A stretch of 64,000 bases of DNA from an uncultured Verrucomicrobiae bacterium (GTDB taxonomy: Bacteria; Chlamydiota; Chlamydiia; Chlamydiales; Rhabdochlamydiaceae). Numbering within the stretch: position 1 is the first letter of the stretch; the number at the start of each line of letters is the position of its first letter. Made by a program: the position numbers. The stretch covers positions 1 to 64,000 of the forward strand of contig CAWFUG010000012.1 in assembly GCA_963818965.1 (NCBI GenBank), read 5' to 3'. Positions 9,001 through 15,000 of the stretch are shown here, one piece after another.

Positions 9001-12000
9001 TTCGTCCTACCAATTAGCTGAAAAAGAACACCTGGGTGATTCGATGTGGCAGCTTTTTTTCGACTGGAGCCACACGGGCATTCACGGCACCTTTATAGCA
9101 GGTGATTTGAATGCCTGTGCTGCCATTCTGCGCAATCCAAAAGAAAGCGATCTGTTTTATGGATTCGATAGCTTATGTGCAAGTATACTTCCTTCTCATC
9201 TGAATTATGACTCGCTCGTTGCCTTGGGTCATAGTAACTTCGATTTACTCGTGCGCTTCGGCGAGGCGATTTCTGCGATCAGACTAGATAACCCTGAAAC
9301 CTACGCAAATCCTACGTGTTTACGAAAGTGGAAGATTTCTGATGTTTTAGACAAGATAGAGAGCAAATTAGGGGTGCAAATTTTTTTCCCTAATCCATAC
9401 GAAGACGAAATCGGAATTTGGACACCACATGGAGTCGCATCAAACAGGGCCTTAGCTGCACTCCATCAAGCCTATTTAATCAAAGAGCTATTAAAAGGAA
9501 TCGAGAACCCTCGGGTTCTTGAAATTGGTGCAGGGCTGGGGAGAACGGCCTATTATGCTCGAACCTTTGGAATCAAAGACTATACGATCATCGACATTCC
9601 AATAACCAATCTCAGCCAAGCCTATTTCTTAGGAAAGGTTTTGGGTGATGATCAAATCGCTCTGCTTGGGGAACCTCAGCAGCGAGATAAAATTAAGATA
9701 TTGACCCCAGATCAATTTCTGAACGATAAAGAACAATATTATGATCTTATTATCAATGTCGACTCATTGACGGAAATGAATACGGCAACCATGCAAGCAT
9801 ATATTGAAAAAATTTCCCAATCCACAGCGCTATTTGTATCCATTAACCATGAATGGAACACCCATACAGTGGGAGATCTCGCTCTGAAGTGCACCCATTT
9901 AGAGTCTTGTCAGAGGACTCCTCATTGGATGCGTCAAGGGTATGCGCAGGAAATTTACAAGTTCAAGTGAGCCGTTCGTTTTTAAAGACGAGATTGTAGA
10001 CAGGCTTTATACCCAAGTGGACTCAAAAGGGTAAATAGAAATTTTACTTCCCAATTTACAATTATAAGCGTTTTCTCTAATATAGAAGGTCGCTTTTCTT
10101 GAGGTTCTATGGTGCTTTTACACATTAGGCGCTTTTTATGGATGGGATGTTGCGCCCTTTTGCTTTTTACTTCCTGCCACAACGACAAAACTCCGAAAAT
10201 GGGAGAGTGCTCCGCAGAGAGACTCGTTCGGCTCAACTTAAGACACGAGCCACTGACGATGGATCCCCGAAAAGGGGGAGATGTCATCTCTTCCCAAATG
10301 CACTTTTTACTATTCGAAGGGCTCGTAAAACTCAATCCCGATCGCTCGATTGCGCCGGCACTTGCAGAATCGTTCACAGTGTCTGAAGATGGATTGATCT
10401 ATACATTTAGATTGAGAGACACTTGTTGGTCTGATGGCTCGCCCGTCCTCGCTTCCGATTTCGAAGCTGCCTGGAAAATGATTCTATCACCGAGCTTCCC
10501 CTCCCCTAATGCGCATCTGCTCTATCCGATTAAAAATGCAGAAAGAGCGAAAAAGGGAGAGGTTGAGTTAGGCGAGATCGGCATCGCATCCGAAGGAGAA
10601 AAGACCCTTCTCGTCACTCTTGAAAAGCCGACTCCCTACTTTTTAGATCTGATCTCTTTTTGCGTCTTTTTCCCCGTCTCTTCGCAAAATGATCAAAATC
10701 ATCCGGAATGGGCCAGGGATCCAGGAGAGAACTTCTTGAGCAATGGCCCCTTTTTATTGCAGGAGTGGAAACACCATGACGAAATTCTCCTCGTAAAAAA
10801 TCCGCTTTATTGGGATCACACACGAGTCCTTCCTGATAAAATTCACTTCAGTATGGTCGATAATGAAGCGACCGTCCTTCAAATGTTTGAAAATGGAAGT
10901 CTCGATATGATCGGGGATCCCCTCTCTTCCATCTCCACCGATGCCTTAAGTACGTTGAAACAAAAGGGTCTGATCCAAAAATACTCGATCCCTGCGACGA
11001 CCATGGTCGCATTCAATGCCGCATCCCCATTCTTTTCCAATCCCAAGATACGCAAAGCCTTCTCTTATGCGATCCATCGAGAATCTATCGCAAATATCAC
11101 CCAGATGGATGAGTGTATTGCGACAAGTGCCGTCCCTCCCATTTTGAAAAAGGGAATAGGACGCCTCCAATTTTTTCAAGACGGTAACGATCATTTGGCG
11201 CAAAAACTCTTTGAAGAAGGACTGCGAGAGAGTGGCCTTTCCCGGGAAGCTTTTTCGAACTTGAGTTATTATTACGCGACGACAGAACTGAACCACAAAA
11301 TTGCGCAGGCACTCCAGCAACAATGGAGAGACACCTTGGGAGTGGAGATTAAACTAGAGAACTTTGAACACAAAATTTTACTCGCTAAGTTCTCCCAACG
11401 AGATTACCACATCGGCCAGGTCCGCTGGATGTCTCAATACAACGACACGATGAGCATGTTAGAGCGGTTTAAATCCAAGGATAATCCGATCAATTTTTCC
11501 AATTGGGAACACCCTCTCTTCGCACAACTTTTAGAAGCCTCTTTCTATGAAACAGGAGCGCAGCGGTTCCAGACTTTAGAAAGGGCAGAAGAGATTCTGA
11601 TGGAAGAGATGCCCTTTAGCCCCATTTATCATTGGGACATGACCTACATGGTACAACCTGGATGCAAAAACCTCGGAATCTCTTCGATTGGGGAACTCTC
11701 CTTTGCGGAGTGAAAATTCTTAATACCGAGGTTGAAAGTTTGGACACAAACTGCTATTTTTAGTGAATTATTTTTTGAAAGCAGGGGTCCATGAAAACTC
11801 TATTTCTTTTACTGATTTCTTATGCTGGGTTCCTTTCACAGTGCTATGCAAACTTCATTCCTATTACACTATCTGAACGACAATTATGCGATCTTGAGCT
11901 GATTTTAAATCAAGGCTTCCATCCACTGACAACTTTCATGAACAAGGCCGATTATGATCGCGTACTGAAAGAAATGCGGCTAATGGATGGAACACTGTGG

Positions 12001-15000
12001 CCCATCCCCATTATTTTAGATATTTCAGAAAAAATTAAACAGCAAATCGAAGATACCGGCACCTCTCAGTTGGCTTTATGCGACCAAGAAGGAAAAACAC
12101 TAGCCTACTTTGACACCTCTGACTTATGGGCCCCAAATAAAGAAGAAGAAGCTCTATCTGTCTATGGAACTACTGATCGCGCTCATGCTGGTGTAGACCA
12201 TCTCTTTAGAAAAATTGGAAATTACTATGTTGGAGGAAAAATCACTAAAATAGCGAATCCTCAGCACTATGATTTTCAATCCTTGAGAAAGACCCCACAA
12301 GAATTAAAAGCGCTATTTAAAGAAAAGGGCTATGACAAGATTGTCGGATTTCAGACGAGAAACCCAATGCACCGCGCCCATTTAGAATTGACAATGCAGG
12401 CTGCTAAAAAAACAGGAGGCCACCTTCTTCTGCATCCTGCAGTGGGAGAAACAAAAGTTGGAGACATCGACTACTTTACGCGTATTAAATGCTACCAACT
12501 CCTTTTGCCTTATTATCCCAGCGATTCCGTCACCTTAAGCCTTTTGCCAATCGCCATGAGGATGGCTGGTCCCAAAGAGGCTCTGTGGCATGCCATTATT
12601 CGTAAAAATTATGGATGCACCCATTTTATCGTGGGAAGAGATCATTCAGGACCTGGAAAAGACCAAAACGGAATCGACTTCTATGACCCTTATGCAGCTC
12701 AAGAGCTTGTGATGAGTCACGCCGAAGAAATTGGTATTGAAATTATTAACTCTCAAGAAATCGTCTACGTCCAAGAAGATGGCAATTATCAATCTGTCGA
12801 TAAGGTGGATCCTAATAAGACAATTCTCAGAATCTCCGGTACCGAAATTAGAAAAATGCTCGGGGAAGGACTCGCTATCCCCGGATGGTTTAGTTATCCC
12901 GAAATAACAGAAAAATTAAAAAAAATCTATCCTCCCAAATCCCAGCAGGGAATTACTCTTTTTTTTTACAGGACTTCCAGCTTCAGGCAAATCCACCATT
13001 GCAAATGCTTTAGCAATCAGACTCAAAGAAGTTCAAGATCGCCCCATCTCTCTTCTCGATGGAGAGTATGGTTCGACAGCATCTGCTAGTGAGCTCGGAT
13101 TTTCAAAAGAACACCGTTCTCTAAATGTGCGCCGCGTGGGCTTTGTAGCTAATGAAATTACAAAAAATGGAGGGATTGGAATCTGCGCCCTAATCGCCCC
13201 CTATGAAGAAGATCGTCTCTATAACAGAAAGTTGATATCCCCCAGTGGAAACTACATTGAAATCTATGTTAGTACCCCTCTACAAGAGTGTGAAAATCGA
13301 GATCCTAAACAGTTGTATTCACTGGCCAGGCAAGGTAAACTGACCGGATTTACAGGGATTGATGACCCTTATGAAAAACCCCTCCACAATGAAATCACCA
13401 TCGATACAACACAAAAGTCGGTCGGCGAAGCCGTGGACACGATCATTTGCTATCTCATTGAAAAAAATCTTATACCAAAACGATAACATGAAAAATTGCA
13501 CTTCTACACCCATCTTCAACAACATTAAAACCCTGATTATAATCACAACATTGTTGCTATTTTGCACAGTAAATGCAGATGCATCCACCCAAGATAGAAT
13601 CATCTTTTTTCATATTCCAAAATCTGGCGGCGTAAGCGTTTCTTCACTACTCATGAATGAATATGATCTTAGCCAAATCAGCAACCCCAACCCAGAAAAC
13701 ATTTGTTTGTATTCGTATGGAACGCACTCTAGTCTTTTTACTATCCAAAAAAACCTAGAGATTTCCAAGTTCAAATTCATTACTTTTTTAAGAAATCCTA
13801 TTGATCGGATCCTAAGCGAGCATCGTTATTGTATACGAAAGCACAATGCAAATCCTGATATCCTTATTGCTCATAATCTACCCCCTGAAGGGGATCCTAT
13901 AGAAACAGCATCCAATAACATGTGCAAATCATTATCTGGACTAGATGACAAAAATCCACTCATTCCAATTGAAGCACATTTAGAGAGTGCAAAAAACACA
14001 TTGAAAGATAAATTCTTTTTCTTGGGAATTACAGAAAAAATGGAAGAATCCATTCATTTGCTCTACTCAAAATTGGGATGGAAAATTCCTGAAGAAATTC
14101 CTCATTTCAATAAAACAGAAGATATTACATTTCCTCCCGATGTATTGCAAAAAATCGCAGAAAGAAACTGGGCAGACATTGAACTGTATGAATATGTCTT
14201 AGGCCTCTATGACATTCAAAAAAACCAAATTTCCATTTCCTCTACCCCCCCCTCGGATGAGGAAATAAATTTTGTCACTCAGTGCCTGTATACGTTTGAT
14301 CAGAAATTAAAAAATGGATATGGATGGGGGTTCAGAGAACTGTTCGATGCTGAAAGTGTCTACAGATGGGCCATTGAAACCAATGAAGCCGGAATCGATT
14401 TTCACCTTCAACCCGACTGGGATTATACTATTCAATGCACTATGTTGATTCAACCCATATTTCACAATCAACTTCATCTTTTTGTGAATGGAATAGAAGT
14501 TCCCTTTCAATCAATTGATTGTGCAAACGACAAATCCATGGAGTACCGATTTTCAACATATCAAGCGAACATTCCTAAAAACCTTATCACAAAAGGAGAA
14601 AAAACAAGGATCGTTTTTAAAATGACCTCCCCTGAAGACCCCCTCCTCTATGCAATTTTTAAGGAAGACCATCCATTCCAATCCATTAACATGAATTATC
14701 TTATAGGAAAATTTGGCCTTAAAGAAATCAGGATTTCACAGATCAGCAGAGAAGCTTGAGAGCAAACGGATCACTTCTGCATCCGACGTCTGATCGAAAA
14801 CTTTATAAAAACAGCCGACCGCTTCAAAGCTTTCGGGCACAAGAAGACACACCACTCTTGCGCACAAGCAGCGCATCTAGCGGAAGATGGAGTCGAGAAG
14901 CGATCTCCGCTGCGGTCACGACCCCGCCTCGTGCGAGGCCAATCACGATCCCTTTAGGATGGTCCTTATAGCGTGTCAGTTGTTGTGCCAGCTGCGCGCC

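Follow-up and report, generated by a model that had tools for sequence, protein, structure and literature searches.

The window analysed here, the first 64,000 nucleotides of a contig from an uncultured member of the Rhabdochlamydiaceae, carries a rare, optional accessory cassette, previously not recognised as such, that comprises a PAPS synthase gene and a sulfotransferase gene (Table 1). Taken as a whole, the evidence is read as a cassette for exported glycan sulfation whose PAPS synthase is compromised, an explanation held with about even confidence. In this proposal, the PAPS synthase and the carbohydrate sulfotransferase would both work in the periplasm or in the lumen of the inclusion. 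Host ATP heading for the nucleotide transporters, three full-length TLC copies of which are encoded in the genome, would have to pass through this compartment and would thereby reach the two enzymes, which would sulfate a glycan held by the carbohydrate-binding-module (CBM)-like domain of the sulfotransferase. In the strain with the damaged synthase, the sulfotransferase would use host PAPS, like most relatives without an APS kinase; alternatively, slippage on a T9 run might supply a small amount of full-length synthase.

Table 1. Features of the cassette and its surroundings, in window positions
Feature	Position	Strand	Evidence and remarks
GT-A glycosyltransferase-like paralog 1	4011..5099	+	signal-peptide-like N-terminus from ATG at 4080
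Protein with two methyltransferase domains	5129..6388	+	hydrophobic N-terminus
GT-A glycosyltransferase-like paralog 2 (modelled)	6499..7518	+	signal-peptide-like N-terminus; pLDDT 92.5
GT-A glycosyltransferase-like paralog 3	7442..8653	+	homology from ~7670; true start uncertain
Methyltransferase-like protein	8852..9970	+	Methyltransf_23 2.1e-4, under curated cut-off; short hydrophobic N-terminus
Left flank: SBP_bac_5 solute-binding lipoprotein gene	10109..11713	+	98% identical on C6
Accessory cassette (PAPS synthase and sulfotransferase genes)	11714-15026		3.3 kb; low GC, 0.40
N-terminal part of Sat-CysC gene	11791..12967	+	Pfam, NF004040, aligned to intact homologs of 580 and 565 aa
Signal-peptide-like segment of Sat-CysC, MKTLFLLLISYAGFLSQCYA	~11791-11850	+	followed by PUA_2 and ATP-sulfurylase domains
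T9 homopolymer, +1 frameshift site	12959..12967	+	between sulfurylase and kinase halves
APS-kinase half of Sat-CysC	12968..13486	+	+1 frame; starts at P-loop TGLPASGKST
Damaged APS-binding motif	13058..13090	+	reads LDGE-YGSTASA-S; alignment, HMM score, homolog counts
Sulfotransferase, 423 aa, intact	13488..14759 (ORF from 13359)	+	Pfam, family alignment, fold
Phosphoribosyltransferase gene remnant, 67 aa	14824..15027	-	model positions 10-63 of 158
Right flank: S-adenosylmethionine decarboxylase gene	15027..15470	-	98% identical on C6

The GC content of the cassette is 0.404, versus 0.473 for window positions 16310-64000. Another contig of the assembly, C6, holds an alternative version without positions 11710-15036, from which the entire gene trio of the first-pass annotation and the phosphoribosyltransferase remnant are missing. 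That annotation had described positions 1-16 kb as duplicated on C6; only 10090-11709 (98.2%) and 15037-16309 (99.8%) recur there, separated by about 20 bp, and all three trio genes are single-copy in the genome. Of 400 other genomes sampled across the phylum, 11 carry the sulfotransferase family, and the same-genus genome (G355) lacks it. Because the cassette is missing from C6 and from this close relative and the sulfotransferase family is so infrequent, the cassette is regarded as accessory. It lies within a variable island of genes for glycan tailoring whose products start with signal-peptide-like segments.

The plus-strand layout of the trio (ORFs at 11791-13089, 13127-13486 and 13359/13488-14759) and all of its Pfam domains were recovered, but not its division into three genes: judged by sequence, g01959 and g01960 are a single bifunctional ATP sulfurylase/APS kinase (PAPS synthase, Sat-CysC) gene. 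The first piece matches PUA_2 (8.4e-40) and ATP-sulfurylase (5.3e-82), and the second matches APS_kinase (9e-32) and TIGR00455 (9.6e-48). On the 572-position model NF004040 the pieces span positions 31-401 (526 bits) and 400-570 (241 bits), neither alone reaching the curated cut-off of 669 bits. With adjoining spans and the T9 frameshift between them, what had passed for a short APS kinase of 119 aa is the tail of the fusion. Intact Sat-CysC fusions of 580 and 565 aa lie upstream of a family sulfotransferase at loci L004 and L001. The sulfurylase half has an open frame and keeps QTRNPMHRAH, its second motif being the variant GRDHSG.

The PAPS synthase is compromised in the present assembly by a frameshift, an Asp-to-Glu change and an indel pair that removes an Arg; these lesions are read from the assembly, and public reads do not cover the sites. 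The frameshift is one surplus T immediately 5' of the P-loop, where the intact homolog at locus L090 has T8, coding TLFFTG. In the LDGDxxR region of the kinase half, a surplus base near 13067 and a base lost near 13086-13087 compensate each other, scrambling seven codons and eliminating the invariant Arg. The alternative frame there reads MVRQHL, which restores the conserved Arg and Leu, and scores 962.5 bits against the actual 947.9, a gain of 14.6. This Arg is present in 101 of the 101 regex-matched homologs (112 homologs used). Of 119 homologs, 114 read DGD and none reads DGE; the window gene has Glu for the second Asp. The earlier statement that the genes for a sulfated ligand exist here was thus overstated.

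The sulfotransferase starts with a signal-peptide-like segment (...LLLFCTVNA/DAS), followed by a catalytic domain resembling heparan sulfate (HS) 6-O- and 2-O-sulfotransferases (HS6ST/HS2ST; residues ~34-253, PAPS motifs HIPKSGG and RNPIDRILS) and a CBM22/35/6-like beta-sandwich (residues ~263-420). It matches Pfam Sulfotransfer_2 (3.6e-10, model 6-251 of 252) and retains every one of the 26 residues that are invariant across a family alignment of 29 sequences. Its predicted structure (pLDDT 90.9), with a long N-terminal helix at residues 9-30, is closest to 5t03 (Z 19.2, 209 aa aligned, rmsd 3.3 A) and 4ndz (Z 17.3); other sulfotransferases score Z ~9.5, and CBM22/35/6 chains Z 10-11. Together with the family profile, which matches 5t03 at E 6e-17, these folds place the enzyme in the HS 6-O/2-O branch and bear out the HS6ST likeness noted at first pass. 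In sequence, Sulfotransfer_2 proteins from Bacillota and Bacteroidota are just as near (25-31% identity), so a recent eukaryotic origin is not indicated. The modelled CBM-like fold is no proof of sugar binding.

The glycosyl- and methyltransferase genes reported beside the trio were confirmed, the latter by Pfam and the former by fold. GT-A paralog 2, with invariant W194/D196 (LWLDAY), resembles retaining GT8/GT6-like enzymes best (glycogenin, Z 13.0), and all 50 of the 50 matches listed are glycosyltransferases or phosphotransferases of GT-A fold. The sulfotransferase and GT-A families co-occur in the window and at L002 and L005/L081, and at L002 the sulfotransferase also co-occurs with methyltransferases, two homologs of the double-domain protein adjoining it. 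Given the HS-sulfotransferase branch, the CBM-like domain and the neighbouring GT-A enzymes, a glycan acceptor is plausible, and the sulfated glycan proposed earlier remains a reasonable product, but the intact donor pathway proposed with it is not supported, the synthase being damaged in this assembly.

The PAPS synthase, the sulfotransferase, the GT-A paralogs and the methyltransferases all have hydrophobic, signal-peptide-like starts. As both cassette enzymes begin with Sec-type segments of this kind, export is inferred, and sulfation would take place outside the bacterial cytoplasm; for the same reason, the cytoplasmic route from sulfate via PAPS to a sugar drawn at first pass is not what the sequences suggest. 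A signal-peptide rule, crude in that it also flags first transmembrane helices and does not tell anchors from signal peptides, flags 108 of the 120 closest Sat-CysC homologs, 24/34 sulfotransferase-family and 24/33 GT-A-family proteins, and 402 of the 1532 ORFs of the genome (26%); several of the 10 and 9 family members passed over are truncated calls. Among 12 other chlamydial Sat-CysC loci, a sulfotransferase lies no more than a few kb away at five; both proteins have a hydrophobic N-terminus at four of these, and neither has one at L094. In the 108 flagged homologs, Lys/Arg precedes the hydrophobic core in 107 and a small-x-small motif follows it in 85. The hydrophobic segment stands in place of the canonical cytoplasmic start (IEPHGG) rather than in front of it. 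By the positive-inside rule, positive residues before the core place the catalytic domain outside. Two points weigh against export: ATP sulfurylase requires removal of its pyrophosphate, and no exported PAPS synthase is known to have been described, although no search here was aimed at this.

Regarding the supply of PAPS, no PAPS_reduct match was found by Pfam in the genome (87.85% complete), in agreement with the first reading, and sulfur assimilation is therefore unlikely. The SulP gene reported earlier is present but split, and a second kind of sulfotransferase is indeed encoded by an Arylsulfotran_2 gene at C8:397397-398260. Of the 11 other genomes that bear the sulfotransferase, 7 have no APS_kinase match, and two more match just the P-loop part of the model, at 22-23 bits; MAG incompleteness could hide APS kinases in this count, since four of the 11 genomes are less than 90% complete. 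As nine of the 11 are thus without an APS kinase, the sulfate donor may be host PAPS.

An assembly error may account for the T9 frameshift, which is a single surplus T in a homopolymer. Frameshift-like contexts occur at 12 of 89 runs of at least 9 bases versus 41 of 1500 random positions, in a noisy test where one flagged site is two separate genes, and conserved rsmH and two IS110 copies are likewise split at A9 runs. To extend this to every lesion, with an intact Sat-CysC of 565 aa and a fully working cassette wherever it is located, agrees with the 65-68% identity to intact homologs outside the three lesions, where no other defect was seen, but is unlikely: runs of 7 (42/1507) and 8 bases (10/477) show no excess, meaning that indels are not a general problem of the assembly, the second lesion consists of two indels separated by 20 nt and not in a homopolymer, and the Asp-to-Glu change at a near-invariant position adjoins them, three independent errors inside 30 nt being improbable. 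The opposite possibility, also unlikely, is a dead relic that this strain is losing with its other sulfate genes, its sulfotransferase merely not yet decayed. The three kinase-half lesions, the split SulP, the phosphoribosyltransferase truncated within the same segment and the cassette-free version in the same assembly fit such decay, but the sulfotransferase retains its invariant residues and reads through all 423 codons, the frame of the sulfurylase half is likewise uninterrupted and its first motif kept, the second indel restored the frame, suggesting selection at that time, and most relatives carry the sulfotransferase without any APS kinase.

The location of the enzymes allows other explanations as well. 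The hydrophobic N-termini could be uncleaved anchors that tether the enzymes to the inner membrane on its cytoplasmic side. A lipid-linked glycan would then be modified there before export, with PAPS, SAM and nucleotide sugars drawn from the cytoplasm, as in O-antigen or capsule tailoring. In favour, all these cofactors normally occur in the cytoplasm, the sulfotransferase model begins with a long helix, and the crude rule is blind to the difference; the charged residues and small-x-small motifs of the Sat-CysC homologs, the predicted outward orientation and the replaced IEPHGG start nevertheless make this unlikely. Very unlikely is the original proposal of a working cytoplasmic pathway to a heparan-sulfate-like surface glycan that mimics host glycosaminoglycans for attachment. 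Every catalytic domain of such a route is encoded, among solved structures the sulfotransferase is closest to HS enzymes, glycosyltransferases are adjacent and no PAPS reductase was found. Against it stand the damaged synthase, the signal-peptide-like N-termini of both enzymes, the split putative sulfate importer SulP, GT-A neighbours not particularly close to heparosan synthases (KfiA Z 8.0, rank 47) and the patchy distribution of the cassette, a pattern not expected of a core attachment ligand.

The synthase half of the cassette has the same order of PUA_2, ATP-sulfurylase and APS_kinase as the sulfurylase-N-terminal Sat-CysC enzymes of NF004040/PRK05537, and shares their P-loop and QTRNPxHRAH motif; it differs in its frameshift, its damaged LDGDxxR and the signal-peptide-like segment that replaces the first ~30 model positions here and in the 108 flagged homologs. 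The sulfotransferase shares the fold of vertebrate HS6ST (5t03/5t05) and HS2ST (4ndz/3f5f) over 207-212 residues at 21-24% identity, HIPKSGG aligning with HIQKTGGT and TFLRNPxDRxLSE with TMLRDPVSRYLSE. HS6ST/HS2ST and the window protein both place a hydrophobic stretch at the N-terminus ahead of the catalytic domain, as Golgi type II enzymes do. Unlike the vertebrate enzymes, the window protein has an added C-terminal CBM-like domain and belongs to a bacterial family of ~35 proteins, nearly all from chlamydial MAGs. In C. trachomatis, as PMC4829429 describes, secreted glycogen-metabolism enzymes use UDP-glucose that is imported into the inclusion lumen, where they act, a precedent for enzymes of nucleotide-activated substrates working outside their own cytoplasm on host metabolites. 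Those enzymes exit by type 3 secretion, whereas the window proteins have Sec-type N-termini, and the chemistry here would be sulfation and PAPS synthesis. In Blochmannia, PMC3017870 reports that poly(A)/poly(T)-tract frameshifts in endosymbiont genes are rescued by transcriptional slippage; the window gene likewise has a lone indel in a long T run, with frames open on both sides, in an intracellular bacterium, but Sat-CysC has further lesions outside the tract, and slippage here is a candidate mechanism.

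The first-pass annotation treated the ATP sulfurylase (g01959) and the APS kinase (g01960) as separate genes. Comparison with NF004040, the NCBIfam model for the bifunctional ATP sulfurylase/APS kinase Sat-CysC (PAPS synthase), revealed instead that they are pieces of one. Against the 572 positions of this model, nucleotides 11791-12967 match positions 31-401 (526.4 bits) and nucleotides 12959-13486 match positions 400-570 (241.2 bits); each piece lies under the curated cut-off of 669 bits, and the summed score lies over it. The coding sense of the upstream ORF is lost past ...QQGITLFF, with nonsense from there, and 12920-13486 is stop-free in the frame of the APS_kinase ORF (translation ...FFFTGLPASGKSTIANALA...). 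Because the two pieces abut on the model and the kinase frame is open in this way, g01959 and g01960 are one gene, whose reading frame shifts by +1 within the T9 run (12959-12967). PUA_2, ATP-sulfurylase and APS_kinase follow the order of NF004040 across two reading frames, and a single polypeptide of this type is obtained only if the shift at T9 is read through. An intact homolog in the complete chlamydial genome of locus L090 has T8 at the same spot, encoding TLFFTG. The window retains the ATP-sulfurylase motif FQTRNPMHRAH, a second motif GRDHSG, which is an Ala-to-Ser variant of GRDHAG, and, in the +1 frame, the APS-kinase P-loop GxxxxGK[ST] as TGLPASGKST. Sat, CysC and the sulfotransferase (g01961) are each present in one copy in the genome.

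Coordinates of the cassette, its surroundings and other loci (window positions unless a contig or locus is named)
Feature	Position	Strand	Details
PUA_2 + ATP-sulfurylase ORF	11791-13089	+	432 aa; Pfam
APS_kinase ORF	13127-13486	+	119 aa; Pfam model positions 60-152 of 152
Sulfotransferase ORF	13359-14759, ATG at 13488	+	423 aa; Pfam Sulfotransfer_2
Phosphoribosyltransferase remnant	14824-15027		67 aa
GT-A-like paralogs (three)	4011-5099, 6499-7518, 7442-8653		66-79% mutual protein identity
Two-domain methyltransferase	5129-6388		Pfam; amid the GT-A paralogs
Methyltransferase-like gene, weaker	8852-9970		Pfam; after the GT-A paralogs
Repeats bracketing the third GT-A paralog	7577-7645, 8650-8819		66-168 nt
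S-adenosylmethionine decarboxylase	15027-15470	-	lipobox-like start
Type II secretion pseudopilin-like gene	24508-25170	+	T2SSJ, N_methyl; 10 kb off the cassette
PAS histidine kinase beside a HAMP + adenylate/guanylate cyclase protein	26184-29891	-	cyclase protein 816 aa
Sulfatase-family protein	42009-43892	-	627 aa; 1.1e-19
Four successive ORFs in locus L100 (= L001 past the sulfotransferase)	10163-13837		216-367 aa; no Pfam
rsmH/mraW	C11:406895-407862	-	Methyltransf_5, split at A9
IS110 transposase copies (two)	C2:48964-50444, C9:448643-450123		split at identical A9 runs
SulP + STAS domain	C9:99605-101469		two frames near T7
Leucine-rich-repeat protein with C-terminal NEL	C1:34695-36311	+	adjoins A9 run

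The kinase half carries further damage. In APS kinases, the motif LDGDxxR binds Mg and APS. DGDxxRxx[LIF] is found in 114 of 119 homologs, whereas the window reads LDGEYGSTAS in place of LDGDxxRxxL and yields the Arg in an alternative frame only; the second Asp of DGD is replaced by Glu, and none of the 119 homologs has DGE. In the alignment, the window block LLDGEYGSTASASELGFS stands against LLDGDIIRANLSRELGFS or LLDGDEIRYRLCQDLGFS in intact chlamydial homologs (580 and 565 aa), and the same bases in the alternative frame give MVRQHL, with Arg at the third position in all 101 homologs caught by the search pattern. An HMM built on 112 full-length Sat-CysC homologs gave 962.5 bits for the alternative-frame reading, in which X marks the break, and 947.9 bits for the in-frame one. 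The simplest history is the insertion of one base at about 13067 and the loss of one at about 13086-13087, which scrambles seven codons and removes the invariant Arg. As the Mg/APS-binding motif is damaged, the kinase half would probably be inactive even if the T9 shift were bypassed.

The T9 shift could be an assembly error, since long homopolymers are overrepresented among frameshift-like contexts of this genome and Pfam checks revealed split genes. Such contexts were found at 12 of 89 homopolymers of at least 9, compared with 41 of 1500 random positions, 42 of 1507 7-mers and 10 of 477 8-mers, a noisy screen that is informative for runs of at least 9 only. The conserved rsmH/mraW is divided at an A9 run, with one frame covering positions 3-97 of the model and another 86-308, and two IS110 transposase copies are broken at runs of the same kind. 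Among the other flagged sites, a T8 at C12:32884 lies between two genuine adjacent genes, mutL and one for an M24 peptidase, and several have no Pfam family on one side. A SulP sulfate permease is divided into Sulfate_transp positions 1-236 and 273-378, and represents a second broken sulfate-related gene. One A9 run on C1 adjoins a gene for a leucine-rich-repeat protein whose novel E3 ligase (NEL) domain gives it the layout of an IpaH-like effector. Equally, the shift could be a real mutation, or the tract could be tolerated through transcriptional slippage, by analogy with Blochmannia, for which homopolymer-tract frameshifts tolerated in this way are described (PMC3017870). Three public soil-metagenome runs contain 6-9% of the sampled words; seven read pieces from public data (151-178 bases) are all identical to the window, and none spans 12955-13135, the interval with the T9 run and the scrambled block. 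None of the public runs listed with window sequence is an RNA dataset. Error is harder to credit as the cause of the kinase-motif lesion, where a substitution and two indels lie outside any homopolymer.

The sulfotransferase matches Sulfotransfer_2 (PF03567) with 40.8 bits against a gathering cut-off of 22 (3.6e-10, model 6-251 of 252). About 35 full-length relatives share 33-58% identity, none of them with an informative name, and among species-representative genomes full-length matches are confined to chlamydial MAGs; one MAG labelled Verrucomicrobia (G175, locus L002) was placed by genome search in the family of the present genome. The window protein keeps every one of the 26 columns that are invariant in an alignment of 29 family members, among them HIPKSGG and R102...S110. 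Both PAPS motifs, the 5'-phosphosulfate loop PKxGG[TS] and the 3'-phosphate motif R-x7-S, are present; H42, P44, K45, G48 and R102...S110 are invariant in 29/29 members and align with the motifs of 5t03, a heparan sulfate (HS) 6-O-sulfotransferase structure, and the near-invariant H80 (YGxH), a candidate for the catalytic base, sits between the two motifs. In the AlphaFold model (pLDDT 90.9), residues 34-253 share the fold of 5t03 (Z 19.2, rmsd 3.3 A over 209 residues, 24% identity) and of the HS 2-O-sulfotransferase 4ndz (Z 17.3), compared with about 9.5 for other sulfotransferases. A search with the family profile recovers both structures, 5t03 with E 6e-17 and 4ndz with E 1.8e-9, and the two PAPS motifs line up, so that the weak HS 6-O-sulfotransferase likeness reported earlier is real and specific to the HS 6-O/2-O branch. 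Residues 263-420 adopt a CBM-like beta-sandwich fold, resembling CBM22/35/6 modules with Z 10-11 (2w5f, Z 11.1; 2w3j, a CBM35, Z 10.3), modestly over the tool background of 7-8. Because of this extra CBM-like domain, the predicted structure points to a carbohydrate acceptor. NCBIfam gave no match for the sulfotransferase, the GT-A paralogs, orf2961 or orf15604.

The neighbouring genes are also of a glycan-tailoring type. The three GT-A-like paralogs, which lie upstream of the trio, have no Pfam match; the model of the second (pLDDT 92.5) has a GT-A fold with Z 13.0 to glycogenin, and all 50 matches listed are glycosyltransferases or phosphotransferases of the same fold. W194/D196 (LWLDAY), a DxD-type motif, are invariant, and Atlas leads agree with the fold assignment. 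The repeats around the third paralog have copies on C11, C7, C1 and C8 (88-97% identity) and may represent a small mobile or regulatory element. Among the other loci examined, 13 of them in one comparison, the sulfotransferase occurs again with the GT-A family in L002 and L005/L081, with two copies of the methyltransferase in L002, and with Sat-CysC in L001/L100, L004 and L051. In L100, from another chlamydial MAG, Sat-CysC and the sulfotransferase are followed by four ORFs with signal-peptide-like starts. The window also holds the sole Pfam Sulfatase-family match of the genome; since this family also takes in phosphoethanolamine transferases and LTA synthases, the protein need not be a sulfatase.

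Sat-CysC and the sulfotransferase both begin with signal-peptide-like segments (MKTLFLLLISYAGFLSQCYA/NF and MKNCTSTPIFNNIKTLIIITTLLLFCTVNA/DAS, respectively), and hydrophobic N-terminal segments are also found on the GT-A paralogs and both methyltransferases. Among the 120 Sat-CysC proteins nearest in sequence (identities of 51-100%, with that of the window counted in), 109 show a strongly hydrophobic stretch where the canonical N-terminus would be; the remainder comprises truncated calls, a few proteins whose stretch is weaker or interrupted, and a few that keep the usual IEPHGG start. A crude rule, which is stricter than the stretch count and is not a trained predictor, flagged 108/120 of these Sat-CysC proteins, the window's among them, 24/34 members of the sulfotransferase family and 24/33 of the GT-A family, compared with 402 of the genome's 1532 ORFs that are 150 aa or longer (26%). 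Among the flagged Sat-CysC proteins, K/R precedes the core in 107/108 and small-x-small follows it in 85/108. Of 12 further chlamydial loci that carry Sat-CysC, five also have a sulfotransferase gene no more than a few kb away, of the Sulfotransfer_1 type in L091, L093, L096 and L094 and of the Sulfotransfer_2 type in L100; both partners have a hydrophobic N-terminus in four of these five pairs, and neither has one in L094. Such matching within pairs would be expected if the two enzymes are required to share a compartment. L094 (G342:C1:1016000-1032000), with Sat-CysC and an adjacent Sulfotransfer_1 gene, provides a natural cytoplasmic counterpart. The S-adenosylmethionine decarboxylase also has a hydrophobic start (MRRVLCLFFFSVFSMGC...), which is unexpected for this enzyme, and the pseudopilin-like gene could be relevant if exported enzymes leave the periplasm.

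The first-pass annotation further supposed that C12:1-16 kb is duplicated on contig C6 of the same genome. Only 10090-11709 (98.2%) and 15037-16309 (99.8%) recur there, and because these segments are about 20 bp apart on C6, the whole trio and the phosphoribosyltransferase remnant are missing from it. The remainder of C6 carries diverged counterparts of the island genes (45-78% identical). It has the look of a different version of the island, contributed by a second strain or by a second locus, and not of a duplicate. Compared with window 1-16309, C6:1-11838 holds GT2-like genes, a single GT-A paralog, one half of the double methyltransferase gene and the SBP and AdoMetDC genes, and it lacks the sulfation cassette. 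The GC content is 0.404 in the cassette versus 0.473 in window 16310-64000. In a sample of 400 further genomes of the phylum, the sulfotransferase family (E <= 1e-20) occurs in 11 and is absent from a same-genus genome; NF004040 is matched at E <= 1e-30 in 49 of the 399 scorable ones and over its cut-off in 24. A search of the cassette flanks gave short repeats of chance size only, no target-site duplication and no integrase. Contamination or misassembly was rejected as the origin of the cassette, since the same gene pair occurs on other chlamydial MAG contigs and the genes flanking it on C12 are common to C6. With Sat-CysC frameshifted, its kinase motif damaged and the cassette accessory, the genes do not exist in the sense assumed at first; g01959 and g01960 should be merged with a frameshift flag, and the cassette handled as accessory.

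A search for PAPS/APS reductase (PF01507) gave no match in this genome (87.85% complete) and a match in all 14 control genomes, in agreement with the earlier reading, and sulfur assimilation was rejected as a role because none was found. The arylsulfate sulfotransferase proposed as a second such enzyme is likewise present (Arylsulfotran_2); the genome has a single Sulfotransfer_2 gene, no Sulfotransfer_1 gene and one inositol-monophosphatase/CysQ-family gene. We infer that Sat-CysC and the sulfotransferase would act outside the bacterial cytoplasm. As the genome encodes three full-length TLC nucleotide transporters, host ATP would have to cross the periplasm en route to them, and PAPS synthesis there is conceivable; nucleotide-sugar chemistry in the inclusion lumen of C. 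trachomatis is a precedent (PMC4829429). Among 11 other sulfotransferase-bearing genomes, a real APS kinase is found in two, no match in seven and a 22-23-bit P-loop match only in two. Because only two of 11 have a real APS kinase, the sulfotransferase is evidently independent of a bacterial PAPS synthase, and for this reason host PAPS would be the likely donor in carriers that lack the kinase. Given the damaged kinase, host PAPS would probably be the donor in the present strain too. The earlier reading, in which a glycosaminoglycan mimic would serve attachment to host cells, is a conjecture; host heparan-sulfate-like glycosaminoglycans are described as the ligand in one review (PMC6795091).

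It is possible, if on balance somewhat doubtful, that a broad clade of environmental chlamydiae combines a Sec-exported PAPS synthase, at least two exported sulfotransferase families, GT-A enzymes and methyltransferases into a "Golgi-like" workshop for glycan tailoring, which would be sited in the periplasm or the lumen of the inclusion and draw on host supplies of ATP, SAM and nucleotide sugars, in some cases also of PAPS, and that the window cassette is a strain-variable, partly decayed copy of it. If true, such a host-fed workshop would be open only to bacteria bathed in host metabolites. A PAPS synthase exported by a bacterium would, if true, broaden the picture of the chlamydial vacuole, seen as a compartment with metabolism under microbial control (PMC4829429). 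It would also supply a definite and testable origin for sulfated glycans in protists infected by chlamydiae, and the long-standing issue of sulfated ligands made by chlamydiae could then be examined in environmental relatives; the present results have no bearing on C. trachomatis. A literature search, with most subscription journals outside its range, found no report of either a PAPS synthase or a sulfotransferase from chlamydiae. All the domains concerned are known. What is new is that this copy of the cassette is accessory and in part decayed and, on sequence grounds, that export-type N-termini occur throughout a PAPS-synthase clade and on its partner enzymes. In textbook accounts, PAPS synthesis and PAPS-dependent sulfation are cytoplasmic or Golgi processes, and an export-type PAPS synthase in a bacterium would, if true, be a new arrangement.
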